Under the pieces are notes generated by a model. That model was not told the origin of the DNA and did not search any database. It saw only the letters and a program-made list of their open reading frames with translations. A program made the translations under genes and the position numbers. From assembly GCA_002440965.1 (NCBI GenBank), contig DJWJ01000031.1, forward strand, positions 6,348 through 70,347: DNA of 64,000 nucleotides. The letters run 5' to 3'. Numbering within the stretch: position 1 is the first letter of the stretch; every line of letters begins with the position of its first letter. This document shows positions 3,532 to 61,250 of the stretch, piece after piece. Source of the stretch: Candidatus Omnitrophica bacterium UBA6233 (lineage in GTDB: Bacteria; Omnitrophota; Gorgyraeia; Gygaellales; Profunditerraquicolaceae).

Positions 3532-3575
3532 GAAAAAGGTGCCAATTCATTACAATAACATAAAGGAGTTTAATA

Positions 3576-6126: not shown

Positions 6127-6128
6127 AA

Positions 6129-6169: not shown

Positions 6170-6427
6170 AAAACTGTGCCATTTCCAAATACCCTGTATA
6201 CAGAGAGTTTTTCTGCCGCGCCGTATTTCTGGGCGTCCTTACTGAGTTCACCTCTTATTGACTATTTTATGATTTCCAGATTTTCTAATTTTTTATAATA
6301 AATAATGTTGTAGAAGAGTTTTTCTGGAGTAAAATATGAAAAAGATGTGTTACGTATTACCAACAGACAAGGTTAATCAGTTAGGAATAATGGAGTCATT
6401 TTTTTATTTCGACAACACTTGATAAAA

Positions 6428-7231: not shown

Positions 7232-7259
7232 ATGGGCTCTGGCTTAATTTATCATTGTT

Positions 7260-11552: not shown

Positions 11553-12659
11553 ATATGAAGATAATATTCCCAAGGCTAGCCACCAGATTGTGTTTATTTC
11601 CGGTAGGAAGAACGAGAAATCGACAGCATTGTGGAATAAGAAAATGCAGCACAATGAGAGTAATCCGGCAAGCTGCTTGTCTCCTGAATCTTTAATTTTT
11701 TTAAAGCCCCTCCTTAAAACAGAAATAACCAGCCATAAAAATGAAGCTAACCCCAGAATACCAGTCTCTGCTAGGATTTGTAAATAAGAGTTATGGGTGT
11801 ATCTGGAAGATGGAAGATTGAAATTTCCGATTCCTACTCCGTTGAGCGGATGTTTTTCGATGATTTTTATTGTCTCCATCCAGTAATCCCACCTGGTTAG
11901 CGCTGAAAAGGTTGGAGTAAACTGTTTCTTTTCGATTGCGCTTCGGGTAATAAATATTGATATAATAATCGTTAATACCGCCAAAAGGACAAAGAGCCTT
12001 CTTTTTTTAATCCCTCCCCGCATATAAAAGAATATTAATAATCCTCCCAACAAGCTTATCAGAGCGCCTAATGACTTAGTGAGAAATAAAGCCATTGATA
12101 ACGGGATAGCTAGCCAGATTAAAGGGCCGATGGTTAGGGTAAGGGGTAAGACCATGGCTAAGTATCCTCCCAAGGCATTGGGGGTGACGAAAGGGAAAAA
12201 TGTGCGTTTTTGAGCGATATAATCCAGGATGAAAGAGCTGGAAATATTTTGTTCAGCGATATAGCTTGTGAGGTGCTGGAAGCCTAAGATATATTGGTAA
12301 ATAGACAGAAGACTGATAATTAATCCGGAAGCAACCAGCCAGAAAATCGCGCGGTTTCTGTATTTGCAAGAAAATGACGCTCCTACGAGAAAAAGCAATA
12401 TTCCGGTTGCGTATTTATAGGATTCCCCTATGCTTATTGACTTATCCTGCGATAATATTAAAGAAATGGCGATTGACAATATAAATACAGATAATGGTAA
12501 TGCCAGATATTTGGTTAACCTTAAAGTTTTAGAGTTTCGCAACAGCCAAGCCAAAAGAAGCATAAATAAAAATGCGGAAAAGATAAAATTAGCATATGGA
12601 AAAGCAAGAGAGGATATGAAGGGGCGGATGAAAGTAAAAAATAATATTATGTCTGACAC
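11511..12659 (-). CDS. O-antigen ligase/polymerase-like (Wzy_C domain) polytopic membrane protein
   Basis: About 10 predicted TM segments. Periplasmic-loop motif HNSYLQILAETGILG matches the Wzy_C/WaaL signature (H-N-x-Y-L...E-x-G-x-x-G). Confidence 0.7.
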   Translation of the reverse strand: MSDIILFFTFIRPFISSLAFPYANFIFSAFLFMLLLAWLLRNSKTLRLTKYLALPLSVFILSIAISLILSQDKSISIGESYKYATGILLFLVGASFSCKYRNRAIFWLVASGLIISLLSIYQYILGFQHLTSYIAEQNISSSFILDYIAQKRTFFPFVTPNALGGYLAMVLPLTLTIGPLIWLAIPLSMALFLTKSLGALISLLGGLLIFFYMRGGIKKRRLFVLLAVLTIIISIFITRSAIEKKQFTPTFSALTRWDYWMETIKIIEKHPLNGVGIGNFNLPSSRYTHNSYLQILAETGILGLASFLWLVISVLRRGFKKIKDSGDKQLAGLLSLCCIFLFHNAVDFSFFLPEINTIWWLALGILSSYLSADQPDKLISFS

Positions 12660-45940: not shown

Positions 45941-47110
45941 ATGGCTGAAAATGGAAAGATTAACCTGCTTTATGTAATTACTAAGCTTGAACTCGGAGGC
46001 GCTCAGAAGCATTTATTAAGTCTCTTGCAGTCTTTGGATGCGAATCGGTTCAGGTTGTTTCTGTTTACGGCTAATAGAGGGGAGTTGCTTGATCAGGTAA
46101 TTAACATTCAGGGACTTAAGTTTTATCGCTGCGCATTTATGGACCGCCCGGTCAATCCTATTAAAGATTTACTATCATTTCTATTGCTATGCTTATTTAT
46201 AAAGAAGAATAATATTCATATTGTTCATACTCATAGTTCAAAAGCGGGTATTTTGGGTAGGCTTGCTGCTAAGGCGTGTAGGGCAAAATTCATAATTCAT
46301 AGTGTCCATGGCTGGAGTTTTAATGATTATCAGATTAAATGCGTAAGCTATCTTTATGTTTGGCTCGAAAGATTCTGCGCCAGGTTCACCGATAGGATCG
46401 TAGTGTTTTCAGAATGGGATAAGCACAAGGGGTTGGCGAGAAGAATCGGGAATAAAGAGAAGTATATATTTATAAGACATGGGATCGCGCCTGATGATTT
46501 CAGAAGTAAGTCTTTCCGCCATAAAATAAGGAAAGATTTAGGTTTCTCTGAGGACAATCCGGTTATAGGCTCGGTTGCTTGTTTTAAGCCTCAGAAGGCC
46601 CCTTTAGATTTCGTAAAGTCAGCTTATTTGCTGAAGAAGATATTCCCCAAAATAAAGTTTTTGATGGTCGGGGACGGCATACTCGGTAATAAGTTGGTAC
46701 GGTTGATTAGGGAGCTTGATTTAAGCAATGATTTTGTTCTTACAGGGTGGCGCCGCGATGTCCCGCTTATTTTATCGGCGATAGATATATTTGCGTTGAC
46801 TTCACTTTGGGAAGGAATGCCGATTGCTGTATTGGAGGCTATGGCCGCGGGAGTCCCGGTTGTTGCTACAGATACTGGCGGTATAAGAGAGGTTATTTCG
46901 GAAAATGTAAATGGATTTTTGGTTAGGCCCGGAGACCCTCAGGCATTTTGCGATAGAATCGCCCGGCTTTTGGAAGATGACAATTTAAGGGAGTCTTTCG
47001 TAAAAAAGTCTGGGAGTATAATTAAAAGGCCTGAATTTCTGGCGGTGAATATGCTTAAGGAAACAGAACGGATATATTTGAATTGCGGTAGCGGGGTTTG
47101 CTGTGGGTAA
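45941..47110 (+). CDS. Glycosyltransferase family 4 (GT-B fold)
   Basis: EGMPIAVLEAMAAGVPVVATDTGGIREV is the E-x7-E motif. 389 aa. Confidence 0.8.
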   Translation: MAENGKINLLYVITKLELGGAQKHLLSLLQSLDANRFRLFLFTANRGELLDQVINIQGLKFYRCAFMDRPVNPIKDLLSFLLLCLFIKKNNIHIVHTHSSKAGILGRLAAKACRAKFIIHSVHGWSFNDYQIKCVSYLYVWLERFCARFTDRIVVFSEWDKHKGLARRIGNKEKYIFIRHGIAPDDFRSKSFRHKIRKDLGFSEDNPVIGSVACFKPQKAPLDFVKSAYLLKKIFPKIKFLMVGDGILGNKLVRLIRELDLSNDFVLTGWRRDVPLILSAIDIFALTSLWEGMPIAVLEAMAAGVPVVATDTGGIREVISENVNGFLVRPGDPQAFCDRIARLLEDDNLRESFVKKSGSIIKRPEFLAVNMLKETERIYLNCGSGVCCG

Positions 47111-48086
47111 ATATTTCCTGATTTTTCTAGCTGGTTTAGCTATTAGTATTCTACTCATAGTTTTACTGAAGAAGATTTCTTCGCGTTTTAATATTTTAAT
47201 TACCAAAAAGATTCCTTTAGTAGGTGGATTTTGTGTAGGGCTTGCTTTTGGTTTTGCTTCCTTAATAGGTTTTTTTCTTCTCCAAGGAGATCTTCGCACA
47301 TTATCTTCTGTGATTGGGGTAGCTTTTGTAATGTTAGTTTTTGGGCTAGCCGATGATTTCAGGGAATTGTCTGTTATCCAGAAGTTCTTTTTGCAGTTTA
47401 TATGCGTTTTACTTTTGGCCCTGGCGGGTATAAGAACCCACATAGTTTTCTTTGGTTTTTGGGGTAATCTGCTAATCACTATTGTCTGGGTTTTAGGGGT
47501 AACCAATTCTTTCAACTTACTCGATATTTCTGACGGATTATCCGCTAGCGTAGCTTTGATTGCGGGAGCTTCATTTTTTGCTATTTCTTTTATTCATTGT
47601 CAGTTTGATGTTCAAATACTTTCTTTATCCTTATGCGCAGCGCTTTCCGGTTTCTTGGTTTTCAATCTTCCTCCCGCAAAAATATATTTAGGCAATTCAG
47701 GAAGCCATTTTCTCGGTTTTATCTTAGCCATACTTGCGCTTATGGTCGATTATGCTCCTATTGACAGGCCTGTTGCTTTACTCAGTCCGATAATAATACT
47801 TTGGCTGCCTCTTTTAGATACAGCCTTTCTGATATATTTTCGGCTCAGAAAAGGATTAATTCCTTTTCACAAGAGCGATGATCATATTGCGTTAAGGTTT
47901 GTTACTTTTGGCTTTACGACCAAAGAGGTATTGATATTGATGTCAGCGTTGGCTTTATTTTTTGCTTTTTGTGGTATAGTCGTGAGCAAGGCAAACAATT
48001 TAATAGGGACAATTGTAGCAATGTTTGTTCTATTGGCAAGTTTTGGAGTTTTTGTAGGATTGCATAAGCTAAAAAACAATGGCTAA
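47103..48086 (+). CDS. Polyprenol-phosphate:HexNAc-1-phosphate transferase (WecA/MraY family)
   Basis: NSFNLLDISDGLSA is the conserved Mg/UDP-sugar motif. Approximately 10 TM segments. 327 aa. Confidence 0.8.
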   Translation: MGKYFLIFLAGLAISILLIVLLKKISSRFNILITKKIPLVGGFCVGLAFGFASLIGFFLLQGDLRTLSSVIGVAFVMLVFGLADDFRELSVIQKFFLQFICVLLLALAGIRTHIVFFGFWGNLLITIVWVLGVTNSFNLLDISDGLSASVALIAGASFFAISFIHCQFDVQILSLSLCAALSGFLVFNLPPAKIYLGNSGSHFLGFILAILALMVDYAPIDRPVALLSPIIILWLPLLDTAFLIYFRLRKGLIPFHKSDDHIALRFVTFGFTTKEVLILMSALALFFAFCGIVVSKANNLIGTIVAMFVLLASFGVFVGLHKLKNNG

Positions 48087-49380
48087 GAAAAAGGTTATTA
48101 TTTTAGGCGCAGGGCTTACCGGATTAAGCGCTGCCTGGCATCTTCAAAAGAGGAGTATACCTTACATAATTTTTGAAAAAGAAAGGTCTATCGGGGGGCT
48201 TTGCCGTTCTAAAAAAATAGACGGCTTTACTTTTGATTGTGATGGGCATATGTTGCATTTTAGGCATCGTTATGTTTTTAATCTGGTAAAAAGCCTCTTA
48301 GGCGATAATCTGGTGAAGCATGAGAGAAACGCTTGGATTCATTTTTATGATAGGCTAATCCGTTATCCTTTTCAGGCTAATCTTTTTGGCTTGCCATCCC
48401 GTATCGCCCGAGAGTGCCTTACGGGTTATCTTAAAGTTCATAAGAACAAGCTTTATGAGTATGCTAACTTTGAGGATTGGATAAAGTTTACTTTCGGTTA
48501 CGGAATAGCCAAACACTTTATGATTCCTTATAATTCCAAGTTTTGGACTCTTCCCTTAAAAGAATTGACCTGCGATTGGCTTGCCGGTTTTATTCCTATC
48601 CCTACCAGAGAACAGGTTGTGCTTGGCGCGAAAAGAGATGTTCCAAAGCAATTTGGTTATAATGCGAGTTTTTGGTACCCAAGGTCTGGAGGGATCAACG
48701 AATTACCCAAGGTTTTGGCTTGTGGATTAAAAGATGTTCGGATTGGATGCCGCGCCAAGCGGATAGACTTAAAGAAAAAAGAAATAAGTTTAAGCTCTGG
48801 AGGTAAGGAAACGTTTGATTGCTTGATTTCTACTATTCCTTTACCTGAGGTTTGGCATATTGCGCCGGATCTTCCCGCTAGTGTCGCAGTGTCATTTAAG
48901 AAGTTAAAATGGAATTCCATTTTTAATTTTAATATCGGTTTGAACCATTGCGGAAACCACAACAGGCACTGGATTTACTTTCCCGATAATAAGCTGTGTT
49001 TTTTCAGGGTAGGTTTCATTAATAATATTTCATCTTCTCTTGTCCCGCGCGGTAAAAGTTCGATGTATATAGAAGTGGCTTACTCCCGGGAAAGACCGTT
49101 AGATAAGAGAAAGATAATAACGAACATTATCAGGGATTTAAAAAGCGTTAACCTGATTTCCTGTCCGGATGAGGTATGCCTTCAGGACATTAACGATATA
49201 GAATACGGTTATCCGATTTATGATTTATTTTATAAGCATTCTAGAGACAATGCTGTTGGATTCCTCAGAGAAAACGGCGTAATTTCTTGCGGCCGTTACG
49301 GGTCTTGGAGATATATGTCTATGGAAGATGCGATACAGGATGGAAGGAGGGCAGCAGATGAAGTTGGCAAGCTTTTTTAA
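48079..49380 (+). CDS. FAD-dependent oxidoreductase (amine-oxidase/UDP-galactopyranose-mutase-like fold)
   Basis: KKVIILGAGLTGLSAA...FEKERSIGG is a Rossmann FAD-binding GxGxxG. 433 aa. Confidence 0.55.
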   Translation: MAKKKVIILGAGLTGLSAAWHLQKRSIPYIIFEKERSIGGLCRSKKIDGFTFDCDGHMLHFRHRYVFNLVKSLLGDNLVKHERNAWIHFYDRLIRYPFQANLFGLPSRIARECLTGYLKVHKNKLYEYANFEDWIKFTFGYGIAKHFMIPYNSKFWTLPLKELTCDWLAGFIPIPTREQVVLGAKRDVPKQFGYNASFWYPRSGGINELPKVLACGLKDVRIGCRAKRIDLKKKEISLSSGGKETFDCLISTIPLPEVWHIAPDLPASVAVSFKKLKWNSIFNFNIGLNHCGNHNRHWIYFPDNKLCFFRVGFINNISSSLVPRGKSSMYIEVAYSRERPLDKRKIITNIIRDLKSVNLISCPDEVCLQDINDIEYGYPIYDLFYKHSRDNAVGFLRENGVISCGRYGSWRYMSMEDAIQDGRRAADEVGKLF

Positions 49381-50152
49381 AGAAAGAATCCGGAAACTTT
49401 TTTTATGCCGTCGTGTATTTATTGATATGGCTTTGCGCCAGTTTAAAGAAAAATATGCAGGTTCCAAACTCGGTTTATGGTGGGCGGTAGTTACGCCTTT
49501 ACTTTTTGCCGTGAGTATCAATTTTGTCTTTATCTCGGTTTTTAATATACAAATGCCCAACTATACTTTATTTGTTCTATCTGGAATGATCCCTTGGTTC
49601 TTTTTTACGAATTCTCTCTCGGAGGCCGCAGGTTCATTTTTATCTAACTCCTCAATCTTGAGGCAGACTCTTGTTCCTCGAGAGTTCATTCCAATGGCTT
49701 CGGTTATGGCAAGCCTTCTGAATTTCGCAATGGGTTTAATCTTTTTGTTACCCTTTTTTATAATCGCCAATATAAAAGTTTTAACGATCATGCCCTTATT
49801 ATCGGTGGTTATATTATTTCACTTTATTTTTATTGCAGGTTTCGCGCTATTGTTATCCGTCCTCAACGTTTTTATGAGGGATTTACCGCATATCTTGTCG
49901 ACTTTATTCATGGTTTGGTTTTGGATTACTCCGGTGTTCTATTCAATAGATATGGCACCTGCTTCTTTTTTATGGGTATGTTTCATAAATCCAATGACCC
50001 ATTTTGTAGTGATATATCGGGAAATATTGTTTCAAGCCAAGTTTCCTCCCCTCGGTAATTTCTTTATTCTAGGTTTACTGTCCTTGGGATTTTTCTTGAT
50101 AAGTTACCTTATTTTTATATTAAAAGAACCCGAGTTATTAAAAAGAATATGA
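49358..50152 (+). CDS. wzm: ABC-2 type polysaccharide exporter permease (Wzm/TagG/KpsM-like)
   Basis: GGAAGGAGG RBS before ATG 49358. Six TM segments. ABC-2 signature region. The track ORF begins earlier at 49328 and overlaps the upstream gene. Confidence 0.75.
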   Translation: MKLASFFKERIRKLFLCRRVFIDMALRQFKEKYAGSKLGLWWAVVTPLLFAVSINFVFISVFNIQMPNYTLFVLSGMIPWFFFTNSLSEAAGSFLSNSSILRQTLVPREFIPMASVMASLLNFAMGLIFLLPFFIIANIKVLTIMPLLSVVILFHFIFIAGFALLLSVLNVFMRDLPHILSTLFMVWFWITPVFYSIDMAPASFLWVCFINPMTHFVVIYREILFQAKFPPLGNFFILGLLSLGFFLISYLIFILKEPELLKRI

Positions 50153-52911
50153 AAAGAGTCGAAATCAAAGGAGCTTGGGAAAAATATCTCATAAAATTTA
50201 TTAATCAAGGCAAGGTTTCTTGGGAAGAAATCTGGGCTCTAGAGGATATAAATCTTGAAATTGATAAAGGACAAACCGTATGTTTAATTGGACAGAATGG
50301 GTCTGGGAAAACTACTCTTTTGAGGTTGATTGCCGGAATGCTCCTTCCGGATAAAGGTGAAGTTAATGTTGATGGCAGGGTTTCTGCTTTGATGGAACTT
50401 GGTGCGGGGTTCAATCCGGAATTTACGGGTAGAGAGAATATTTCGCTTAACGCCAGGATGTATGGATTAAGCGATGAAGCCCTGGCAGGCTCTTTGACTA
50501 AGATTATAGATTTTGCCGATTTGGGTAAATTTATCGATGCTCCAATAAAATATTATTCTCAAGGTATGTTCATGCGCTTAGCCTTTAGTTTGGCAATATT
50601 CGTTGAGCCGGACATACTTTTGATTGACGAAGTTTTATCCGTGGGTGACGAAGAGGCAAGGCAAAAATGTATCAAGATGATCTTTGACCTGAAGAATGCG
50701 GGTAAAACAATAGTTTTAGTGACTCACGATTTAGATATGGCGGTTAAATTGTGCGATCGCGCCATTCTTATAGAAAAAGGAAAGATCATAAAGGACGGAT
50801 TACCCAAGAAAATAATACCTTATTATTTTGAGACTATCGGGGATAAATCTGGAGTTGCTGTTCTTGGTTACGATAAGTATAGAATCGTGTTTAATAATGG
50901 AAAACTTAGTATTTCCTACGAAGATAATCTTCTTAGCAGGGGTTTCGGAGGCTCGCTTTCTTTTTTCTCTCCCTGTATTAATAGATGGTTATCATCTTCA
51001 GATTTGTCTTGGAAGATCAATAGATTATCTGAAAATAAAATTATTGCTGAGGGTAGTTCTGGAAGCCAGGCATTGTCTCAGATATGGACAGTTGAGCTGC
51101 TTGAAAACCAGCTTAAATGGGACATGGAACTTAAAGAAAGCTTGGCCGTTGATCCCCATATGGATTTATTTTTAAGCCCGGATTATAAGAAGCTTTTTAC
51201 CGCAGACAAAGATATGGATATACCCGATTTTTCGAATAAGTCAGATTGGCAGGAGTTGTATGCTTCTCGTGATTTTCTGGGTTTTTCTGCTCCGGATAAA
51301 AGCGCGAGTCTGCCTTTATTATTGTTTAAAGCAAATGATCGGAGTGTTCCATTTAGGGCTTTTAACACAGGTTATATCCAGGAAGCGCGGGTAATGCAGG
51401 CGCATCTTGGCGATGACCGCATTTTTTCGTTCAGTATAAGATTTTTTCCTTCTCGGAAAGACTTTGAAGATCTTATCTGGATTCTAAAGGAGGAATTGCG
51501 CCAGAAGCGCGAAGCGGAAGAACAGGAAAAAGCGAGGGCGCAGAAAGCGAAAGATGAAGAACGGATTTTGGCGCAAACTCTTCAAGCCGGAAATTTCCGT
51601 GTTTTTGCGGATGTTGATAGTAGGAAAGTAAAGATTTATTTTAGAGAAAGAGAAGTCAGCAGCGGAAAAGGAATTTATTCGGATATATGTATGGCCGAAA
51701 GCGGCGTTTGGATAAACCCGGATTTTGCGCAGTGGCAAGTAAGAAGAACCTGCCCGGAGGAATTGAGCTTGATTTTTGTTTTCCCGGAACTATTTTTTCG
51801 TCAGATTTGGGTATTCAGGGCGGTTGATAATAGGATAATTCTTAAGGTATCGTTGGAGACCGACAAGCAGTTTTCAATAATTTCTCAATATTTAAGATTT
51901 GAGGTCAGCGATAAATTTAAGGAATGGAAAACAATTTATGAAAAAGGTGATGTTGCGGCCAAACAATATTATAACAATATCGCGCCAATAAGAATCAAAG
52001 ATAATAAAGTTACAGAGATAATCTTGGGGGCTGGATCCGGTAATGAAATTGCGCCTCTGGGTATTCGTTCTTATTCAGGGTATGGCACAAAAACATTAAG
52101 TGTTTTTAAAAAGAAAGAATCAAATGGTGAGTCTATTTGCGTTAATTATTCGGCTATTATTCCGAGGAATGCGCAGTTGATTTCTCCCGGCAGAGTAGAT
52201 TTATTTGAGGGGGAGATAGTTTTTAGTGGCGGTATCAGTTTAAGTGAACCCATAAAGAAAACCGGTATTCTGAAAAGGAATAATCTTGGATTTATTTTTG
52301 ATTCCGGCAGAGGAAAGATTTTTTTTGATGGCAGAGAATTGACCAAAGATTTGGGAGTATATACTTCTTTGCGTTCAAACGGAATTTGGTATGATTCGTT
52401 TCAGGGGGTTTGGGACTTTGAATGTTTGGATGATTTTAGGATGATAGCCAGAGGAGACTGGCAATGTATTCCTGTTTCGCAAACCTGGATCATAGAATTT
52501 CTGAAGGAAGGCTGTATATATTGGAAAGTGGTAATGGATGTTTATGAGGTCGTTGATTTGGAAATCCAACAAGCGAGCGTTATGCTTTCGCCGGAATACA
52601 AAATTTGGGAGGTTTCGGGTATACCCAAAGGATATTTTTCGCAAGGCTATACTAATGATTATGATATTTTGCCTTTTAGATTTTGGAATGGAAAATCGGG
52701 AGAAACCGGGCTCTGTGCTTCGGGAGATAAAATACCCGGTGTATGTTTTAAGAATATTCGGGATGAGGCATTTTGTAATGCCATTGTGGAGAATACCGAT
52801 TCAATTTACCGTGGGAGGCTGCTTCAATATCAAAAGGAAAACTTGCATAAACTTTTACCGGGTAAATACGACTATTTTGAAGGGGTAATAAAGATTGAAT
52901 CTACGGGATAA
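50149..52911 (+). CDS. wzt: ABC transporter ATPase (Wzt/TagH-like) with about 690-aa C-terminal extension
   Basis: GQNGSGKTT (Walker A), YSQGMFMRLAFS (signature), LLIDEVLSVGD (Walker B). Extension contains three repeat modules and a charged coiled coil. Confidence 0.8.
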   Translation: MKRVEIKGAWEKYLIKFINQGKVSWEEIWALEDINLEIDKGQTVCLIGQNGSGKTTLLRLIAGMLLPDKGEVNVDGRVSALMELGAGFNPEFTGRENISLNARMYGLSDEALAGSLTKIIDFADLGKFIDAPIKYYSQGMFMRLAFSLAIFVEPDILLIDEVLSVGDEEARQKCIKMIFDLKNAGKTIVLVTHDLDMAVKLCDRAILIEKGKIIKDGLPKKIIPYYFETIGDKSGVAVLGYDKYRIVFNNGKLSISYEDNLLSRGFGGSLSFFSPCINRWLSSSDLSWKINRLSENKIIAEGSSGSQALSQIWTVELLENQLKWDMELKESLAVDPHMDLFLSPDYKKLFTADKDMDIPDFSNKSDWQELYASRDFLGFSAPDKSASLPLLLFKANDRSVPFRAFNTGYIQEARVMQAHLGDDRIFSFSIRFFPSRKDFEDLIWILKEELRQKREAEEQEKARAQKAKDEERILAQTLQAGNFRVFADVDSRKVKIYFREREVSSGKGIYSDICMAESGVWINPDFAQWQVRRTCPEELSLIFVFPELFFRQIWVFRAVDNRIILKVSLETDKQFSIISQYLRFEVSDKFKEWKTIYEKGDVAAKQYYNNIAPIRIKDNKVTEIILGAGSGNEIAPLGIRSYSGYGTKTLSVFKKKESNGESICVNYSAIIPRNAQLISPGRVDLFEGEIVFSGGISLSEPIKKTGILKRNNLGFIFDSGRGKIFFDGRELTKDLGVYTSLRSNGIWYDSFQGVWDFECLDDFRMIARGDWQCIPVSQTWIIEFLKEGCIYWKVVMDVYEVVDLEIQQASVMLSPEYKIWEVSGIPKGYFSQGYTNDYDILPFRFWNGKSGETGLCASGDKIPGVCFKNIRDEAFCNAIVENTDSIYRGRLLQYQKENLHKLLPGKYDYFEGVIKIESTG

Positions 52912-55900
52912 CTATTATAAATTCAAAAGACATTTGGAGTCTAAAGGAGGATTCTACGCTTTATGCAGAGGCCTAAAATATATTTTATATTTATTTAGGC
53001 ATAGCGGAGCTTTGTTTCGCAGCCGAAATATTATCGAAAAAGGTAAGCTTAAGTTGGTATTTAACGGTCACGGAATTTCAATTTTCTGGGATAATATTGA
53101 AATTACCAAAAATGCCGGGTTAAATTGCGGCATAAAGATATCGGAAGCATGGACTGATTCCACGAAGGCAAAGTGGAAGGTTCTGGAGAGTGGGCCGGAT
53201 TTGCTTAAGTTCTCAGTTTGTTTCAAAAAATTGCCCCTAAGACAAATCTGGACATTAGGAGTAGATAGCCAGGAAATTTTCCTTTGGCATATAGATCTAG
53301 AAGTAAAATCTTCCATATTAATAGATGAACTGCGTTTTATAAATCAAGTTCGGCCAGTTTATAAGGCTTGGTTATCGGATTATCTACAAAATTATTTTCC
53401 CCGTTTAGACAATTGCTGGCATGATTTGAACGGTAATGAAGATGGATCGGTTTGTCTTGTAGGTTTAAGACATCCGAGGCAGGCAGATATACCTCGTTGT
53501 TTGGTTTTGGAAACGCAGGATGGTGTTTTGCCGGCTTTGATTCAGAATACCCCAAAACAACACGGCACTAATTTAATAGGTTTTAAGTTAATCAGGAAAG
53601 GCGTGGAAAGAAATTATTATCCGGGGATGCACAGTATTTTTTCCTGCCGGATAAATATTTTTATTGAGGATGAACCTTTGGATATAAAGATTGAGCATTT
53701 GCGTAGAAGTATTTTCGATAAATCTTTGGCTGCTAAGGCCGTAGAAGATAAAACTAGAAAAAAGCCGAGTGTTTCATTGGTTAATTTGCCTTGGAAGAGG
53801 GGAGGGAAATGGGGGGTGCGTGCCGGTTCGCGCTGGCCGCATATACTTGACGATAGCGAGACAAATTATTTGCCGTTTCCGTTCTTTCTGGCTTACGCTG
53901 CGGCATTGCTGCAGAAAAATTATTTTTCGGTCAGCCTTATTGACGCTATTGCAGAGCAGCTTGATGAAGAAGTTTTTTTGAAGAAAATTACCGGATTGAA
54001 CATTGATTTTCTGGTTGCGGAAACATCCACCCCGTCTTTTTATAATGATTTGGCTATTTTAAAGAAAATTCATTCTTCTTTGGGTATTCCGATAATACTT
54101 TGCGGACCGCACTTTGAGATTTACCAAACTCAGATTTTGAAAGATAACGATTTTATAGCTTATACGCTATTTGGAGAATATGAATTTACTCTACTTGAGC
54201 TTTTGGTTAGTTTGGCAGAGAAGAAAGATTTATCCGGGGTGAAGGGTTTAATTTGGAGAGCAGGGAGTGACGTTATCAAAAATCCGGCGCGGGAGGCTTG
54301 TGATATAAATCTTTTGCCTTGGCCTCTTCGGGACGCCTTGCCTATGGGAAAATACATGGATTTGCCTGGAGGATTGCCTATTCCTTCGGTTCAGATGCTG
54401 TCTTCCCGAGGGTGCCCTTTTAGGTGCACGTTTTGTCTTTGGCCGCAGGTATTTTATTCCGGGCGCGATTACCGGCCGAGGGATGTTGGGGACGTAGTAA
54501 ATGAAATGGAGTATTTGGTAAAGGTTAAAGGATTCAAATCTATATATTTTGATGACGATACATTCAATATTGGCAAAGAAAGGATTCTCGAATTTTGCAA
54601 ACAGGTTAGAGGCAAAGGATTGCAAAACATACCTTGGGCGGTAATGGCAAGAGCTGATTTAATGGACAAGGGAATCCTTTCCGAAATGAAATCCGCCGGC
54701 CTTTGGGCGGTGAAATATGGAGTTGAATCCGAAAATCAATTATCAGTTGATGATTGCGAAAAGAGACTGGACTTAAGAAAAGTTACTGAAATTGTCGGAA
54801 TCACCAAATCCCTCGGGATAAAAACCCATCTTACGTTCTGCTTTGGTTTTCCTGGGGAGACGGATAAAAGTATTCGGAAAACCATAGATTATTCATTGAA
54901 ACTCGACTCCGATTCCGCCCAATTTTCCATTCTTACTCCGTTTCCCGGAACGGAATTGTTTGAGCGGTTAGACAATGAGAATAGGATACTTACGAAGGAC
55001 TGGTCAAAATATGATGGCCATCACAGTTGTGTTTTTCAGCCAGATATTTTGACCGTGGATGATTTGGAAAAGGCAAAAGAGAAGGCTTGTGTTATTTGGG
55101 CTCAGAGTAAGCTGGGCAAGAGGCATCTTGGTTATGATTTTGGTTTATTGTTGCAATACCAAAGAATCGGCGGGTTGGCATATGCTTTAAAAAGGGCATT
55201 TCATTATTGCTCCGGGAGGGTTACCGGAGCAATGCGGAATTCCTATGAACGGATGTTTGGTTTTGCCAAGGGGGCGGGATTTCTTACGGCAAAATTTTTA
55301 AAATACATTATCGATGGTGATGCCCGGCGTCACTACCTGCAGCTTCAAGGGGTTCATAGCGGTGAATACGCCTTTGTCGGCCCCAATCACGTGCAGGTCG
55401 ATTTGACTAACAATTGCAACAATAATTGTCTGGCTTGCTGGTGTAATTCTCCGCTTTTAGAGGAGAAAGCTTTGGGTTTGGAAGCTAAGGAGCAAGAACT
55501 TCCATTGAATTTGGTTAAAAGGCTGCTTGATGAATTAGCTTCTATGAGGACAAAGGAAATTTATTTTTCCGGAGGAGGGGAGCCTTTTGTCCATCCTGAC
55601 ATTATGGAGATTCTTGAGTATGCAAAACATAAAAAATTCATCTGTTATGTGAATACGAATTTCACCTTGTTTGATAGGAATAAGATTGATAGCTTAGTTA
55701 GAATGAGGATGGATCATTTAACGGTAAGCACTTGGGCAGCTACTCCTAATACATATTCCATAACCCATCCCAATAAGGATAAATCCGTTTTTTGCGACAT
55801 CATTGACAATCTCAAGTATTTGAATTCCATAAAGAGGGGCAAACCGGGCGTAAAATTATATAATGTCATTTTTAACAAGAATTTTTTTGAATTGGAAGAT

Positions 55901-56533
55901 ATGATTGAGATAGCATCCCGGACAGGTTCCGAATTTGTCGAATTTACTTTAATCGACACGATACCGGGTAAAACCGAGGAATTACTTTTAGATTCACGCC
56001 AGATCGCAGAATTGCGTAATTTAGCGGAAAAGATTTCGTGTAAACTAGACAATGCGGGTTGTTATAAAGGAGTGAAGGTTTTGAATTTCAAATCATTCTT
56101 AAGGCGTATTGCCAGCGATTCCGACCTAAAAAAAGCGACATATGACCGCAACATTATCGATAAAATTCCCTGTTATGCCGGGTGGATTTTTAGCCGTATT
56201 ATGCCTAACGGTGATGTTAACGCATGTCTTAAGGCGCATAGGATTCCCATGGGTAATCTATATAAAGCAAGTTTCAGGGAGATTTGGAATGGCGACAAAC
56301 AAAGGTATTTCCGGAAAAAAACATTGGTTTACGAAAAAAACGATTGTTTCTTCAAGTCTATCGGAAATGATCCGGAAGTTCAAGAGGCAGGATGCTATAA
56401 GAGTTGTGATGATATAGAGAGAAATACTTCATTTCATCGAAAAGTCAGCAGCCTTAATTTATTTGAGAAGAATTTTGTCGGTATTTTCTCAAAGCTTAAA
56501 AGGGTGAAGATTCGAAATGGAAAAAAAATCTAG
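52895..56533 (+). CDS. Tri-domain fusion: Wzt-C-terminal-like repeat module + B12-binding radical SAM + radical SAM/SPASM
   Basis: aa 50-140 alignable with the Wzt extension repeats (..PLRQIWTLGV....FLWHIDLEV). CPFRCTFCLW (nt about 54413-54443). NNCNNNCLACW (nt about 55411-55441). CYAGW...DVNAC SPASM/twitch (nt about 56170-56240). 1212 aa. Confidence 0.7.
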   Translation: MNLRDNYYKFKRHLESKGGFYALCRGLKYILYLFRHSGALFRSRNIIEKGKLKLVFNGHGISIFWDNIEITKNAGLNCGIKISEAWTDSTKAKWKVLESGPDLLKFSVCFKKLPLRQIWTLGVDSQEIFLWHIDLEVKSSILIDELRFINQVRPVYKAWLSDYLQNYFPRLDNCWHDLNGNEDGSVCLVGLRHPRQADIPRCLVLETQDGVLPALIQNTPKQHGTNLIGFKLIRKGVERNYYPGMHSIFSCRINIFIEDEPLDIKIEHLRRSIFDKSLAAKAVEDKTRKKPSVSLVNLPWKRGGKWGVRAGSRWPHILDDSETNYLPFPFFLAYAAALLQKNYFSVSLIDAIAEQLDEEVFLKKITGLNIDFLVAETSTPSFYNDLAILKKIHSSLGIPIILCGPHFEIYQTQILKDNDFIAYTLFGEYEFTLLELLVSLAEKKDLSGVKGLIWRAGSDVIKNPAREACDINLLPWPLRDALPMGKYMDLPGGLPIPSVQMLSSRGCPFRCTFCLWPQVFYSGRDYRPRDVGDVVNEMEYLVKVKGFKSIYFDDDTFNIGKERILEFCKQVRGKGLQNIPWAVMARADLMDKGILSEMKSAGLWAVKYGVESENQLSVDDCEKRLDLRKVTEIVGITKSLGIKTHLTFCFGFPGETDKSIRKTIDYSLKLDSDSAQFSILTPFPGTELFERLDNENRILTKDWSKYDGHHSCVFQPDILTVDDLEKAKEKACVIWAQSKLGKRHLGYDFGLLLQYQRIGGLAYALKRAFHYCSGRVTGAMRNSYERMFGFAKGAGFLTAKFLKYIIDGDARRHYLQLQGVHSGEYAFVGPNHVQVDLTNNCNNNCLACWCNSPLLEEKALGLEAKEQELPLNLVKRLLDELASMRTKEIYFSGGGEPFVHPDIMEILEYAKHKKFICYVNTNFTLFDRNKIDSLVRMRMDHLTVSTWAATPNTYSITHPNKDKSVFCDIIDNLKYLNSIKRGKPGVKLYNVIFNKNFFELEDMIEIASRTGSEFVEFTLIDTIPGKTEELLLDSRQIAELRNLAEKISCKLDNAGCYKGVKVLNFKSFLRRIASDSDLKKATYDRNIIDKIPCYAGWIFSRIMPNGDVNACLKAHRIPMGNLYKASFREIWNGDKQRYFRKKTLVYEKNDCFFKSIGNDPEVQEAGCYKSCDDIERNTSFHRKVSSLNLFEKNFVGIFSKLKRVKIRNGKKI

Positions 56534-57980
56534 CTGTAATCCAATCGTTTCGGGGGCAGATATCCTTTTGGTGATACCCCCTCCTTTTTTTACTAGAATG
56601 CCGCATATAGGAGTGGCATATTTGTCGAGTTTTCTCAAGGCCAAAGGGTTTAAAGTCTCTGTTTATGATTTAAGCCTGAAGCTATATAATTGCGCGACAG
56701 ACGAACTGAAGGAATTCTGGCAGATCGATCTTCTTAATAAGTTATTTGTTACGGAAGCAGCCGATTCTGTTTATAAGAATTTTGAGCAGCAAATAACCAG
56801 ATTTGTGGAGGATGTGTTAGCTACCGATATTAAAGTAATAGGTTTTTCCGTGAATATTATAAGTATATTTTTGGCTAATCGCATAGCGATGGAAATCAAG
56901 AGGAGAGACCCGGGTAGGTTCATTATTTTTGGCGGACCAGGAACATATTTCAAGCATCCGCGTGAATTAACCGAATCCGGATTTGTCGACTTGTATATAA
57001 TAGGGGAAGGCGAATTGACTCTTAGTAACATTTTAATTTCTTATTATTCGGGAAAAAATATAGAAACAGCTCCAGGGATATTGTCGGGGAATGATCTAGG
57101 CAGGTGCCAGGCCATCCCCGGGCAGACTATACATAACCTAGATACAATACCTCCGCCGACATTTTCAGAGTTCAATCTTGGTGACTACAATCAGGGTAAC
57201 GAATATAAACCGTTGCCTTTGCTTTTAAACCGTGGTTGTATTAATAGGTGTTCATATTGTATTGATTGTATAATGTGGCCGAAATACAGATCCAGATCCC
57301 CAAAACATATTATGGCCGAGATTGATTATCATATTAACAAAAACAATACCAAAGCTTTCGAGATTCTTGATTTGACTTGTAATGGTAATCTTGGACAGCT
57401 TTCAAAAACATGCGGTTTAATTATCGACTCAGGTTATAAGTTTGATTGGGTCAGTTATGCAGTCATCCGCAGGAATATGGATTTTGCGCTTTTGAGAAAA
57501 ATGAAACAGGCCGGTTGCAATACTTTGATATATGGCGTGGAAAATGGTTCGGATAGAATTTTAAAGAAGATGGGGAAAAGATATACGGCAAAAGAGGCTT
57601 CTGGGGTAATCCGGACTACACATAAAGCCGGGATCCGGGTGAATATAAATATCATCGTGGGGTTCCCGGGAGAAACGGAGAAAGATTTTGAAGATACAAT
57701 TGATTTTATCCGCGAGAACAAAGATTATATCAATGAGGTTACAAATGTATCAGGCTGCACATTATTCCCTGAAGCAGAGATTGGGATAAACAGTAGGAAA
57801 TACGGTATAGTCTGGGATGAGCATAGCGAGCCGATGCTGTATGAGGATTCAAATGGACTAAACCGGTCCGGAAGAATTGAGCGTGTGGCTAGAATGGTAG
57901 AGGCAATCAGCGAATTAAACCTGTCCAAGTCTATAATTAACAAGCCGGCTCTCGCCCCAATCATGAGAGAAGCTAGATGA
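56517..57980 (+). CDS. B12-binding (class B) radical SAM enzyme
   Basis: N-terminal B12-binding fold (ILLVIPPPFF...KGFKVSVYD). NRGCINRCSYCIDC is a CxxxCxxC motif. 487 aa. Confidence 0.75.
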   Translation: MEKKSSCNPIVSGADILLVIPPPFFTRMPHIGVAYLSSFLKAKGFKVSVYDLSLKLYNCATDELKEFWQIDLLNKLFVTEAADSVYKNFEQQITRFVEDVLATDIKVIGFSVNIISIFLANRIAMEIKRRDPGRFIIFGGPGTYFKHPRELTESGFVDLYIIGEGELTLSNILISYYSGKNIETAPGILSGNDLGRCQAIPGQTIHNLDTIPPPTFSEFNLGDYNQGNEYKPLPLLLNRGCINRCSYCIDCIMWPKYRSRSPKHIMAEIDYHINKNNTKAFEILDLTCNGNLGQLSKTCGLIIDSGYKFDWVSYAVIRRNMDFALLRKMKQAGCNTLIYGVENGSDRILKKMGKRYTAKEASGVIRTTHKAGIRVNINIIVGFPGETEKDFEDTIDFIRENKDYINEVTNVSGCTLFPEAEIGINSRKYGIVWDEHSEPMLYEDSNGLNRSGRIERVARMVEAISELNLSKSIINKPALAPIMREAR

Positions 57981-58091: not shown

Positions 58092-59282
58092 ATGTCTATG
58101 CGTATACTTATGGTTCATCCTCATGATATTTATTCTTCAGCTGAACCTTGGACAAGAAGGGTTGTTTCTCTTGCCAGTGAGTTGGCCAGAAAGGGCAATG
58201 AGGTAAAGTTAGTTTATTTTTCTCTTTCCTATAAATATGGAGAAAGCCGTATTGCAGATAATTGTCAGGCAATATCGTTTCCAAGGAATATTACCCCCCA
58301 GGTTTTTATCCGAGATATTCGTTCTTTGGTATCGTTAGCCAGATGGGCGGATATCATTCATTTCCAAAAGTGCCACTACTACTCCGCCTTACCCGCAGTA
58401 ATCGCAGCCTATCTTTACAATAAGCCTTTGCATTATGATTGGGATGATTGGGAGGAAATGATTTGGTATGAATCCTGCGGGAAATCGGTGCATTCCCGCT
58501 TCATTGGTTTTTTCTTTAAGATACTGGAACGTTTTTTGCCTGTATTGGTTGATTCCGTATCCGTTTCCAGCCGGAATCTCGGGGATTTATCTGTTAAATT
58601 TGGAGTTAGTCCGAAATGTCTTTATTCTGTGCCGGTAGGGGCGGATTTGGAGCAATTTAACCCCGGAGTTGACGGATCGGGAATAAGAAAACGGTATAAT
58701 ATCAATGATTCCCTGGTTCTTTATTTAGGCCAGCTCCACGGAGCGCAATATATCGATATTTTTATAAAAGCAGCAAGAATTGTAATAGACAGATACCCGC
58801 GGGTTACTTTTATGATAGTAGGCGAAGGTTTTATGGAAAGATCTCTTAAAGAATTAGTTCAGGGGATTGGAGTGAGCAGGAATTTTATTTTTACCGGTTC
58901 ATTTCCCCGTGAAGACATTCCCGGATGTATTTCTGCCGCCGATATCTGTGTAGCTCCTTTTAAGAAGACAAAAGTTACTATCTGCAAAAGCCCTCTTAAG
59001 ATTGCCGAATATCTGGCTTCAGGCAAGCCAATTGTGGCAAGCAATGTTGGAGAGGTGGAAAGGATGATTTGGGATGCGGGTGTCTTGGTTGAACCCGGAG
59101 AAGCTGAGCCGTTCGCAGAAGGCATACTTAAGCTTCTCAGTGATAGCCGTTTGAGGCAAGATTTGGGGAATAAAGCAAGAAAAAGAGCCGAAGAGACGTA
59201 TAATTGGAAAGTTTCGGCACAGACCTTGTTGACTGCTTATGAAAGATCCCTTAACCGAAGAGATAACCATAATTCAGCATAA
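58092..59282 (+). CDS. Glycosyltransferase family 4
   Basis: GT-B fold. C-terminal KIAEYLASGKPIVASNVGE...EPGEAE. 396 aa. Confidence 0.7.
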   Translation: MSMRILMVHPHDIYSSAEPWTRRVVSLASELARKGNEVKLVYFSLSYKYGESRIADNCQAISFPRNITPQVFIRDIRSLVSLARWADIIHFQKCHYYSALPAVIAAYLYNKPLHYDWDDWEEMIWYESCGKSVHSRFIGFFFKILERFLPVLVDSVSVSSRNLGDLSVKFGVSPKCLYSVPVGADLEQFNPGVDGSGIRKRYNINDSLVLYLGQLHGAQYIDIFIKAARIVIDRYPRVTFMIVGEGFMERSLKELVQGIGVSRNFIFTGSFPREDIPGCISAADICVAPFKKTKVTICKSPLKIAEYLASGKPIVASNVGEVERMIWDAGVLVEPGEAEPFAEGILKLLSDSRLRQDLGNKARKRAEETYNWKVSAQTLLTAYERSLNRRDNHNSA

Positions 59283-59283
59283 G

Positions 59284-60378
59284 ATGAAGATCATATTCAT
59301 TACTCGTGAAGGATACAGGTTGGCCGGAGCCAGAGTCCGATGCTATAATTTTTCCAGGGGCCTTATGAAATACGGGATAGAATCAGAGGTTTTCTCGTTT
59401 GCGGATACCTTGGGAGCCAGAGACGGAGAAGGCGAATCCGCCATGGGCATTGCGGAGAAGATAAAATTAAATTATCTGGCTTTTAAGAGGCTGATTAAGG
59501 AAAAGAACAGTATTTTTTGCATTCAGCGTTTCAATTATCATTCTTTTGCTCCATATTTGGGGCATTTATTCCTCCGGAATAAAATCATTTTTGATCTTGA
59601 TGATTGGGAAATGCGCGAGAACCCAAAGTACTATTTTGGTTTTTATCCCAGTTCCAAGGCGCATTTTTGCGCGCGTGAGATCGCCAAAAGAAGCGTTTTC
59701 TGTATTTCAGCCAGCAGGTTTTTGCAGCATTTCCTGGGCCGATTTAACAGGAAAGTTCACTATCTTCCTTCCGGAGTCGATACGCAATTATTCAATCCCG
59801 CCGAAAATATTCCTGCCGCAGAGAAAATAGTCATTTCTTGGATAGGGACTTTTAATAAAATGGAATACATCGAGAATATAGATTTTGCTTTACGTTGCTT
59901 TGTTAAATTAAGAAAAAAACATAAAGACATCCATCTTGATATAGTAGGGGATGGAATCTATAAAGATAGCTTGGTCAGGCTGGTTACTAGATTCAATGAT
60001 TCAAATGTTAGGATTAAAGACTGGATTGCTCCTGATGAGATGCCTATTTATCTTCGTGGAATTCAGATTGGTATTCTTCCCGTAAGAAGAAGCAATAGTT
60101 TTAATCTTTCGAAAAGCCCGACAAAATTATTTGAGTATATGGCGATGCAAAAGCCGACGGTATGTAGTGCGATCGGGGAAGCGATGGATATTGTTAAAGA
60201 TGGCGATAACGGGTATCTGGCTTGCGATGCGGATATGTTTATCAAGAAAATGGGATATTTGATTGATAATTCCAGCCTTAGAAAACAGATGGGGGCCAGG
60301 GCAAGGGAAAGCGTAGAGGATAAATATTCTTTGGGAGTATTGTGTGGCCAATTTAAGGAAATATTGGAGAGTATTTGA
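59284..60378 (+). CDS. Glycosyltransferase family 4-like (GT-B)
   Basis: MKIIFIT... C-terminal LFEYMAMQKPTVCSAIGE...DNGYL. The track ORF begins earlier at 59239 and would overlap the previous gene; ATG 59284 directly follows its stop. Confidence 0.6.
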   Translation: MKIIFITREGYRLAGARVRCYNFSRGLMKYGIESEVFSFADTLGARDGEGESAMGIAEKIKLNYLAFKRLIKEKNSIFCIQRFNYHSFAPYLGHLFLRNKIIFDLDDWEMRENPKYYFGFYPSSKAHFCAREIAKRSVFCISASRFLQHFLGRFNRKVHYLPSGVDTQLFNPAENIPAAEKIVISWIGTFNKMEYIENIDFALRCFVKLRKKHKDIHLDIVGDGIYKDSLVRLVTRFNDSNVRIKDWIAPDEMPIYLRGIQIGILPVRRSNSFNLSKSPTKLFEYMAMQKPTVCSAIGEAMDIVKDGDNGYLACDADMFIKKMGYLIDNSSLRKQMGARARESVEDKYSLGVLCGQFKEILESI

Positions 60379-61250
60379 TGGCTGGGATTTCGATTATAAT
60401 CCTGACATATAATAACGCTGCATTTACAAAACGGTGTCTAGTTTCCGTATTCGCCCAGAATTATCAAAATCCGGAAGTTATTGTCGTGGATAACCATTCG
60501 AGCGATGGCACGATTGAAATGATTAAGCGGGATTATTCGCAGGTTATTTTGATCGAAAATAATATTAACCTAGGGGCAAGTAAGGCTAGAAATCAGGGTA
60601 TTAGTGTTGCGAATGGTGAATGGATTTTGACATTGGATAGCGACGTTGTTTTAGAAAAGGATTTCTTGAGTAGATTCGATTCGCTAAGCAGCGGTTTCGC
60701 TGCAGATACTGCCATGGTTCAGCCGAACGTTTTTAGTTTTGACGGTAAGGCCATCTATTCTCAGGGGATATATTTAACAAAGTTCAGGAGATTTTATGAT
60801 TTAAACCGGGGTAAACCGGATTCTTATATCAGCCCGAAGAGAAAAAAAATCATTGGTCCTTGTTCTGCCGCCGCTTTTTATCGCCGCAGCGCGCTCAATC
60901 AATTAAAAGAAAATACCGGTTATTTTGACGAGCGTTTTTTCTTTCTGGTAGAGGATGTTGATTTAGCCTGGCGAGCCAGTAAATCCGGGTGGAAAACAAT
61001 TTTTGTCCCCGAACTTAAGTGTTATCATTGTGGTAATGGGTCCCGGACCGGCAAAAAGCTAAGACGATTTTTATGTTCTCGCAATCGTATCCTGATGATT
61101 AATAAGAATGAAAGCTTTTTAGGAAAGATTTTTGTTTGTTTAATCAGTCTGCCTTATGAGTTGCCCAGATTTATTTTTAGCTATCTAGATATAGGAGAAT
61201 GCCATATTGATTATTCTGTTTTGGGAAATAAAACAAGAGTTAAAGCATAG
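60375..61250 (+). CDS. Glycosyltransferase family 2
   Basis: ISIIILTYNNAAF...VVDNHSSDGT...LDSDVVL (DxD). 291 aa. Confidence 0.75.
   Translation: MMAGISIIILTYNNAAFTKRCLVSVFAQNYQNPEVIVVDNHSSDGTIEMIKRDYSQVILIENNINLGASKARNQGISVANGEWILTLDSDVVLEKDFLSRFDSLSSGFAADTAMVQPNVFSFDGKAIYSQGIYLTKFRRFYDLNRGKPDSYISPKRKKIIGPCSAAAFYRRSALNQLKENTGYFDERFFFLVEDVDLAWRASKSGWKTIFVPELKCYHCGNGSRTGKKLRRFLCSRNRILMINKNESFLGKIFVCLISLPYELPRFIFSYLDIGECHIDYSVLGNKTRVKA

Follow-up and report, generated by a model that had tools for sequence, protein, structure and literature searches.

The 1212-amino-acid (aa) protein encoded at 52895..56533 (+) in a 64,000-nucleotide (nt) stretch of Candidatus Omnitrophica bacterium UBA6233 (contig DJWJ01000031.1; the whole stretch is referred to here as the window) joins an N-terminal module to two different radical S-adenosylmethionine (SAM) domains, and the module belongs to the same family as three domains carried by Wzt, the ATPase of the adjacent ATP-binding cassette (ABC) transporter. 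Our comparisons describe an ABC-transporter-dependent glycan pathway with a novel recognition-type module common to the exporter and to its radical SAM tailoring enzymes. The arrangement is real, phylum-wide and undescribed, while its chemistry and logic are what we infer from it. With somewhat better than even confidence, we regard the protein as a cytoplasmic, two-headed radical SAM tailoring enzyme for a lipid-linked glycan or glycopolymer exported by the neighbouring Wzm-Wzt transporter. The module would target the enzyme, most likely by binding the nascent polyprenyl-diphosphate-linked glycan or, alternatively, the transporter-bound assembly. It would keep both radical domains on the exporter's polymer and membrane site, and radical modification would precede export and be coupled to it.

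A literature search found no description of a radical SAM enzyme coupled to Wzm-Wzt, of the module, or of the cassette in Omnitrophota, and two Xanthomonas matches concerned unrelated genes. To our knowledge, every ABC-transporter-dependent glycan pathway studied has either a small carbohydrate-binding module (CBM) on Wzt that reads a cap derived from a kinase, a methyltransferase or 3-deoxy-D-manno-oct-2-ulosonic acid (Kdo), or no CBM. The locus constitutes a third arrangement, kept across the Omnitrophota, which are mostly uncultured, host-associated nanobacteria. If the coupling is true, radical SAM chemistry would extend from mainly small-molecule sugars and peptides to cell-surface polymers, and a new glycan-recognition module would be defined. 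Omnitrophota surface glycans would then be predicted to contain unusual radical-derived sugars, with a bearing on host attachment, and a Pfam-less domain family and several uncharacterised radical SAM families would gain a testable context.

The gene is a single open frame of 1212 codons without an internal stop. Its product is 100% identical to P0001, recorded as 'MAG: radical SAM protein [Candidatus Omnitrophota bacterium]' (MAG, metagenome-assembled genome), and the identical protein or gene is found on three contigs from NCBI and ENA assemblies. In unrelated metagenomes there are dozens of homologs that have matching architecture and align over 96-100% of its length, so the three-part architecture is not an assembly artefact. 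Taken with the three identical contigs, these many independent homologs rule out, short of read data, an artefact or frameshift behind the fusion, and an earlier note on this DNA was right to treat it as one gene. Translation starts at a TTG codon, a choice backed by homologs that open with M-x-x-K-[DN]-N-Y at the aligned position, and an AGGGG motif lies 9 nt 5' of it. At each end the gene shares 17 nt with a neighbour, its start with the end of Wzt and its stop with the beginning of the following gene (56517), a layout typical of translational coupling, which it suggests at both junctions.

An aromatic/basic helix-Gly-helix element that is kept in homologs occupies the extreme N-terminus (aa 1-41, 52895..53017 (+)). 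The module follows (aa 42-262, 53018..53680 (+)), and then the first radical SAM domain, consisting of a B12-binding-like Rossmann domain and a radical SAM core (aa ~295-745, 53777..55129 (+)). Translation and motif comparison place two further helix-Gly-helix repeats in an inter-domain linker (aa 746-827, 55130..55375 (+)), which has a low predicted local distance difference test score (pLDDT) in the structure model. The second radical SAM domain, with twitch-like auxiliary-cluster Cys, completes the protein (aa ~828-1177, 55376..56425 (+)). The succession of a B12-type domain and a second radical SAM domain with a twitch/SPASM cluster, as originally proposed, agrees with the Pfam and NCBIfam matches and with the invariant CX3CX2C motifs of both domains. 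The helix-Gly-helix motif, about 30 aa long ([FY]xx[FY]+...G...A..+...[YF]), sits ahead of the module and of the SPASM-type domain and recurs at nearly every domain junction in homologs, including P0004, P0031 and P0074. Amphipathic-helix analysis of the linker motif gave a high hydrophobic moment for aa 25-42, and the motif could be a membrane-interface or docking element. A hydropathy check found no hydrophobic segment in either Wzt or the fusion protein and, because neither has one, both are expected to work on the cytoplasmic face. An extracytoplasmic Wzt extension with a TagH-like transmembrane segment is ruled out by the same check.

When aa 1-312 of the fusion protein were compared with aa 226-920 of Wzt by BLASTP, three separate matches were obtained, one for each Wzt module. 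The first Wzt module (aa ~236-438, 50854..51462 (+)), a beta-supersandwich, matched with E = 7e-5 over Wzt ~243-407; the second (aa ~475-693, 51571..52227 (+)) with E = 9e-9 and 27% identity over Wzt ~494-597; and the third (aa ~703-919, 52255..52905 (+)) with E = 1e-7 over 223 columns (Wzt ~703-916). A hidden Markov model (HMM) built from the four window copies delimits all three, detects the module in about 90 homologs of the enzyme and, run over the window open reading frames (ORFs), finds it in none besides Wzt and the fusion. An independent profile, made only from radical SAM-attached modules outside this genome, picks out the three in Wzt with independent E-values of 1e-19, 5e-20 and 4e-35, respectively, and the homology is therefore real. 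The earlier note had placed this resemblance at aa ~50-140 of the enzyme. Homology to the adjacent Wzt extension, at the Wzt positions it named, is borne out, but the unit is longer, at about 220 aa (aa 42-262). Between the first and second Wzt modules lies a Lys/Glu-rich helix, KEELRQKREAEEQEKARAQKAKDEERILAQ (51511-51606, aa ~455-486), which could form a single alpha-helix spacer or a coiled coil.

An AlphaFold2 model of the module, made from a 30-sequence alignment, was all-beta with a pLDDT of 94.9 and a predicted template modelling score of 0.90. The modelled fold is a galactose-mutarotase-like supersandwich and not the known Wzt CBM fold. A Foldseek search of the model gave the same picture, and there was no Wzt CBM among the matches listed by either fold search. 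Solved Wzt CBMs are compact beta-sandwiches of about 150 aa, and hmmscan (E <= 0.01) found no match to PF14524 (Wzt_C) in Wzt or in the fusion protein. With no such match and a different modelled fold, identity with the known Wzt CBM is ruled out, and 'Wzt-CBM-like', as the N-terminus had been called, has to be given up in that sense. The structural neighbours of the module are in their overwhelming majority carbohydrate-active. It can be compared with the galactose-mutarotase-like domains of aldose 1-epimerases, with the accessory domains of glycoside hydrolase families GH2, GH36, GH38 and GH63, and with OpgG/OpgD, at 5-15% identity and with no Pfam match. Unlike those carbohydrate-enzyme domains, it is repeated in tandem on the ATPase of an ABC transporter and appended to radical SAM enzymes, two uses of a supersandwich for which no description was found in the literature. 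The module thus has a known fold and no described sequence family. Only Gly, four Trp, Ser, Gln, Tyr and Pro are invariant or near-invariant in it; in the numbering of the enzyme, W86, S89, W94, Q117, W119, W131 and Y156 are conserved. The catalytic His/Glu set of mutarotases is not among the conserved positions, and no match to Pfam Aldose_epim was found. Because its conservation is aromatic-rich and lacks the His/Glu set, the module is best described as non-catalytic; that it is a mutarotase enzyme is ruled out.

Searched against 1.84 billion cluster representatives, the module profile found a small family of 661 proteins, 353 of them at E <= 1e-30. Architectures were assigned with local HMMs for the best 148, of which 81 have a Wzt nucleotide-binding domain followed by two to seven modules (mostly three) and about 50 are module-only fragments or stand-alone proteins. 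In the remainder the module is attached to a B12-type radical SAM domain like domain 1, to a SPASM-type radical SAM domain, or to a second type of B12-type radical SAM enzyme, that of window gene 56517. Four more proteins are PMT_2 (GT-C/GT39-like) glycosyltransferases (GTs) with two to four C-terminal modules. All the named family members that were looked up are Omnitrophota. Orthologous classes can be told apart among the modules, each specific to a position: Wzt-first, Wzt-middle, Wzt-last, radical SAM N-terminal, inter-radical-SAM and C-terminal. Members of the radical SAM N-terminal class score 267 bits within the class and 80-87 bits against the Wzt classes, so the enzyme module is an old, separately kept paralogue. 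A recent copying of a Wzt module onto the enzyme is ruled out by the same classes and scores.

For the radical SAM-radical SAM core, the protein collection contains at least 398 relatives, all named simply 'radical SAM protein', and 346 species-representative genomes encode it. The fusion, of which the earlier note knew no other example, is consequently a member of a widespread family, though an undescribed one. Nearly all of the best 80 of the 346 genomes are labelled Omnitrophota; the others are a few probably mis-binned or mislabelled contigs and one Aminicenantes chromosome. Several architectures occur. The simplest is a module-free B12-type plus SPASM-type enzyme of about 910 aa, and the window form adds the N-terminal module (about 1150-1230 aa). 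Elsewhere a module-B12-type protein is followed by a separate protein with one to four SPASM-type domains, or the module precedes two B12-type domains, the second of another type (B). There is also a form of about 1395 aa in which modules follow both the B12-type and the SPASM-type domain, and the largest forms reach about 1950 aa and four radical SAM domains. Tandem SPASM-type ORFs with three or four domains were seen downstream of module-B12-type genes in L031, L038, L041-L049, L057 and L064, and P0004/P0005 have four radical SAM domains and a beta-rich insert.

Gene order was counted at the 43 loci whose upstream sequence extends to 6 kb or more. Modules are encoded upstream in 38 of the 43, and Wzm together with the Wzt nucleotide-binding domain in 33. 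A SPASM-type radical SAM domain lies within 3 kb downstream in all except two (41/43) and in the same ORF in 15, and in 30 the module shares an ORF with the B12-type domain. The core order of Wzm, module-bearing Wzt, B12-type protein (with or without module) and SPASM-type protein is kept across the phylum, and all fission and fusion variants of it occur. The wider recurring order is GT4, a WecA-like PNPT protein, an amine-oxidase-like flavoprotein, Wzm, Wzt with its modules, radical SAM proteins, a B12-type radical SAM protein, GT1 and GT2. In two cases transporter and enzyme are one chain: P0026 (1900 aa) consists of a nucleotide-binding domain, two modules, a B12-type domain, a further module and a SPASM-type domain, the same ORF being found in an NCBI MAG and a Logan assembly, and P0126 of a nucleotide-binding domain, five modules and a SPASM-type domain. 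Taken together, these Rosetta-stone fusions, the variants split into separate genes and the overlaps at the gene junctions speak for transporter and radical enzymes working as one unit. The proposal that the gene belongs to an ABC-transporter-dependent glycan locus and is tied to Wzm-Wzt is accordingly upheld by conserved synteny and by single-chain fusions elsewhere.

The same variability can be read in terms of protein contacts. The modules might be protein-protein units, with the Wzt array as a cytoplasmic platform on which radical SAM enzymes dock by module-module contacts, a serious rival explanation that we nevertheless consider improbable. It would account for the stand-alone module proteins encoded between Wzt and the radical SAM genes (L006 8555-9998, with 226 and 252 aa; L008; L044) and for Wzt arrays that are sometimes split over two ORFs, the point of splitting or fusion varying (ATPase-module, module-module, module-radical SAM) as in subunits of one assembly. 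The single-chain Wzt-radical SAM proteins point in the same direction, and so does the tendency of module-less enzymes to go with a two-module Wzt and of module-bearing enzymes with Wzt proteins of three to five modules. Moreover, supersandwich domains serve non-sugar roles as well, for example in YidC P1. However, the conserved positions are mostly Trp, Tyr, Ser and Gln, as in sugar-binding platforms, and the prevalence of carbohydrate-active neighbours noted above speaks for a sugar ligand. The modules are also found C-terminal on GT-C enzymes (one to four copies in P0191, P0133, P0208, P0262 and L003 2-1699) and, if these copies are periplasmic, the module would work on both sides of the membrane and glycan would be its sole partner on both. 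By hydropathy the GT-C-module fusions have 7-10 transmembrane segments (crude, per sequence) or 9-10 (alignment consensus), and the consensus, judged by the positive-inside pattern, leans slightly towards a periplasmic C-terminus. They have no solved homolog by sequence, and the C-terminal domain of solved GT-C family members is periplasmic. The scaffold and glycan-targeting models are not mutually exclusive and can both hold.

The closest known parallels are the systems that combine a CBM-bearing Wzt with a chain terminator, namely WbdD/Wzt of E. coli O9a, WbbB/Wzt of Klebsiella O12 and Raoultella, and WzmWzt of Aquifex aeolicus. As here, these have Wzm and a Wzt ATPase with a non-catalytic C-terminal extension, a modifying enzyme gene adjoining the transporter, and a WecA-type initiating transferase and cytoplasmic GTs in the locus; the window Wzt likewise carries its modules, in three copies, C-terminal to the nucleotide-binding domain. 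Unlike them, the present loci have two to seven tandem supersandwich modules of about 220 aa in place of a single PF14524-type CBM, a double radical SAM enzyme in place of a kinase/methyltransferase or Kdo transferase, and a module family common to enzyme and transporter, which are sometimes one polypeptide. The likeness is one of layout, and terminal capping would be hypothetical here.

It is this analogy, with the Wzt CBM and either WbdD (E. coli O9a) or WbbB (Klebsiella O12), that led the enzyme to be viewed as a chain terminator. It would modify the non-reducing terminal sugar with a radical SAM-derived cap, such as C-methyl, and the Wzt module array would read the cap and license export. 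Known CBM-bearing Wzt proteins go with terminal modification of the glycan (PMC9445017). Module-bearing Wzt and radical SAM genes occur together almost invariably and are sometimes fused, and a single modification per chain would suit the slow, costly turnover of radical SAM enzymes. The anciently diverged, position-specific module classes could be accommodated if uncapped ends were recognised by the module of the enzyme and capped ends by one on Wzt. Several observations speak against termination, which we hold to be possible and on balance unlikely. In the fusion protein, Pfam and NCBIfam give only B12-binding, Radical_SAM and SPASM-type matches, and none to kinase, SAM methyltransferase or Kdo transferase domains of the WbdD/WbbB type. 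Terminators of that type also have a coiled-coil molecular ruler; the one obvious charged helix near the fusion lies in Wzt (aa ~455-486). The Wzt modules differ from the known cap-binding CBM, and tandem arrays of two to seven look like multivalent polymer binding or a scaffold and not like a single pocket for a terminal residue. Related loci have up to eight or more radical SAM domains, which is excessive for one cap, and domain 1 has non-methylases (HpnJ, BchE and AprD4) as its nearest characterised relatives. The data are compatible with both terminal and internal modification. A more elaborate version, which we offer tentatively and think rather unlikely, is that the module-targeted pair of radical SAM domains makes a radical-derived terminal cap (ring-contracted, deoxygenated or C-alkylated) and that the Wzt array reads the cap or the modified polymer and triggers export; enzyme and reader would then come from one domain family, would be assembled at the transporter and, in some species, would be one polypeptide.

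For the tailoring enzyme that we favour, the relatives of the two catalytic domains are informative about the likely chemistry. The fusion protein matches Pfam Radical_SAM (PF04055) twice, over aa 503-666 in domain 1 (E = 4.5e-33) and over a second stretch. An alignment of 70 homologs shows the CX3CX2C motif of domain 1 (C507/C511/C514, nt 54413-54436) to be invariant in all 70, as are C403 and a WGVRAGSRWPH motif (aa 306-316) that is peculiar to this domain. Over aa 310-723 the NCBIfam scores are 207.6 bits for HpnJ, 154.1 for BchE and 112 for AprD4, far under the respective equivalog cut-offs of 577.6, 481 and 500 bits. The HpnJ match spans profile positions 18-398 of 472, and the alignments to HpnJ and BchE run through the B12-binding-like region. 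The closest solved relative by sequence is AprD4 (6fd2; E = 6e-29 alone, 2e-33 with a profile), followed by TsrM, MgmA, CysS, TokK and OxsB. AprD4 is a radical SAM 1,2-diol dehydratase acting on an aminoglycoside sugar, and HpnJ has been proposed to carry out the ring contraction of glucosamine in a hopanoid; both work on amino-sugar rings. HpnJ and BchE are non-methylases (PMC9204698). Domain 1 resembles the HpnJ/BchE/AprD4 branch in its N-terminal Rossmann-type B12-binding-like domain and CX3CX2C radical SAM core. It is unlike that branch in scoring below the equivalog cut-offs, in its own WGVRAGSRWPH motif, in its fusion with both a supersandwich module and another radical SAM domain, and in its polysaccharide-export setting, as opposed to a hopanoid, chlorophyll or aminoglycoside pathway.

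In domain 2, Pfam SPASM (PF13186) matches aa 1093-1142 with 40.4 bits against a cut-off of 21.5. The CX3CX2C motif (C841/C845/C848, nt 55415-55438) is invariant in the same homologs, and so are C850, C917, C1093, C1111, C1167 and C1171. The auxiliary region reads C1093-X12-G-X4-C1111 ... C1167-X3-C1171 (nt 56171-56407), and the CX2CX5CX3C element of the full seven-Cys SPASM (CX9-15GX4C ... CX2CX5CX3C ... C) is absent from the C-terminal region of the domain. The SPASM/twitch cluster that had been predicted is thus present in its twitch-like part (CX12GX4C ... CX3C) and not as a full SPASM, and the region appears closer to twitch, with C850 and C917 as two extra conserved Cys. NCBIfam aligned aa 828-1152 with several SPASM/twitch families, and there were weak profile matches to DesII (2.5e-6), BtrN (4e-4) and BlsE (0.012), the last a cytosylglucuronate decarboxylase. 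These three enzymes, like domain 2, have a radical SAM core and a C-terminal auxiliary Fe-S region starting CX12GX4C. Domain 2 differs from them in a mere 15-18% sequence identity, in its Cys pattern (CX12GX4C ... CX3C with the invariant C850 and C917), and in always adjoining or being fused to a B12-type domain. Since all NCBIfam scores are far below the curated cut-offs, neither radical SAM half belongs to a named equivalog; judged by sequence, the domains fit the broad class-B-like and twitch/SPASM groups and no named family.

Sugar-modifying enzymes head both lists of relatives, which fits a carbohydrate substrate. Because the nearest characterised relatives act mostly on sugars (HpnJ, AprD4, BlsE, DesII, BtrN), the two domains would probably carry out consecutive steps on a sugar ring, for instance an H-abstraction-driven rearrangement or dehydration and then an oxidation or decarboxylation. 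C-methylation would be an alternative to this chemistry; it is possible, and not favoured by the nearest relatives of the domains.

A different substrate altogether should also be considered: the radical SAM domains might act on a peptide or on a lipid, such as a polyprenyl or other membrane lipid carrier, with export of the product by the ABC transporter. Domain 2 is structurally near SkfB, SuiB, PqqE and CteB, which mature ribosomally synthesised and post-translationally modified peptides (RiPPs), and domain 1 and the downstream B12-type protein match lipid-modifying and RiPP methylase families with similar sub-threshold scores. Nevertheless, the cassette lies amid genes for a WecA-like initiating transferase, GT4, GT1, GT2 and GT-C enzymes, a sugar aminotransferase and epimerase, and a Wzy_C protein. 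The transporter is of the Wzm/Wzt-TagGH polysaccharide or polyol-phosphate type, and the attached module has a carbohydrate-enzyme fold. There is no obvious precursor-peptide gene, though no search aimed at one was made. A lipid or peptide substrate is, in our judgement, very improbable.

Some of the evidence weighs against a glycan-tailoring enzyme targeted by its module. The module is not essential for catalysis, since the family members of about 910 aa do without it, and in L058 (CP070825.1, the Candidatus Aminicenantes chromosome) the B12-type and SPASM-type proteins come from two genes side by side, and neither Wzm, Wzt nor the module is encoded close to them. This locus was the only clear non-Omnitrophota match on a long record among the best 80 of the 346 genomes, and its pair may be an ancestral or a laterally transferred form. 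The supersandwich is not exclusively sugar-binding; YidC P1, a PBCV-1 capsid protein and an NDH subunit were also among the fold matches. Pfam B12-binding (PF02310) reaches 31.8 bits over aa 330-436, marginally below its cut-off of 32.1, and AprD4, the closest solved relative of domain 1, is not known to use cobalamin. In structure, domain 2 is hardly nearer to BlsE than to the peptide maturases SkfB, SuiB and PqqE. All the radical SAM matches are remote, chemistry and substrate class being taken from context, and the ligand binding and activity of the family are predicted from fold, sequence and context.

The neighbourhood in the window is that of a Wzm/Wzt-type glycan assembly locus, with an ABC-2 permease, a Wzt/TagH-type ATPase, a polyprenyl-phosphate initiating transferase and cytoplasmic GTs all in one cluster. 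Wzm (49328..50152 (+)) matches PF01061 (ABC2_membrane, E = 1.2e-12) and is kept immediately 5' of Wzt in 33 of the 43 related loci. The Wzt nucleotide-binding domain (aa 1-232, 50149..50844 (+)) matches PF00005 (ABC_tran), with Walker A, signature and Walker B motifs visible, and its best NCBIfam matches, to TagH and galactan Wzt/RfbE, are below the cut-offs. By Pfam and NCBIfam, the genes upstream encode a GT4 (45941-47110 (+)), a WecA-like polyprenyl-phosphate N-acetylhexosamine-1-phosphate transferase (47103-48086 (+)) and a flavin amine-oxidase-like protein (48079-49380 (+)), in an order that is the same in L001, L005, L007 and many of L008-L087. The last of these also gave weak sub-cut-off matches to UDP-galactopyranose mutase and to protoporphyrinogen/phytoene-desaturase families.

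Downstream, a conserved member of the cassette encodes a B12-binding radical SAM protein of 487 aa (56517..57980 (+); Pfam B12-binding and Radical_SAM), whose counterpart in other genomes can form one chain with a module or with the didomain enzyme. Its closest NCBIfam matches are RiPP C-methyltransferase and PhpK-type families, below the cut-offs, and from these it looks more methylase-like. Two GT1-type glycosyltransferases and one GT2 follow (58092..61250 (+), by Pfam), and a GT1 homolog is kept downstream in related loci. Further glycan context is given by GT-C enzymes, sugar aminotransferase and epimerase genes, and a Wzy_C ligase-family gene. The Wzy_C/O-antigen-ligase-family gene is at 11511-12659 (-), and a gene of the same family lies directly 5' of Wzm in L088 (6814-8139). 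Its presence in the glycan region, and 5' of Wzm in that locus, suggests that a periplasmic ligation step may join the exported glycan to an acceptor such as lipid A-core or a protein.

Between 19790 and 57980 there are 11 radical SAM domains in 10 genes, which is very dense for one glycan locus. In addition to the didomain gene, these are the B12-type proteins at 19790 and 56517, five paralogous proteins of about 325 aa (23203, 27400, 28388, 32227, 34465), and two more at 41819 and 43580, the latter with SPASM. Between them lie AsnB-like amidotransferases (24198, 36376), GDSL proteins (26159, 33214) and a DegT aminotransferase (31019), and ORFs without annotation (21254, 29411, 35509) are interleaved with them. 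The 5' end of the window (249-8348) holds mobile and defence genes, namely an IS110-family transposase (249-1274), a Shedu SduA_C-domain protein (3576-4874) and an rve_3 integrase (7287-8348 (-)).

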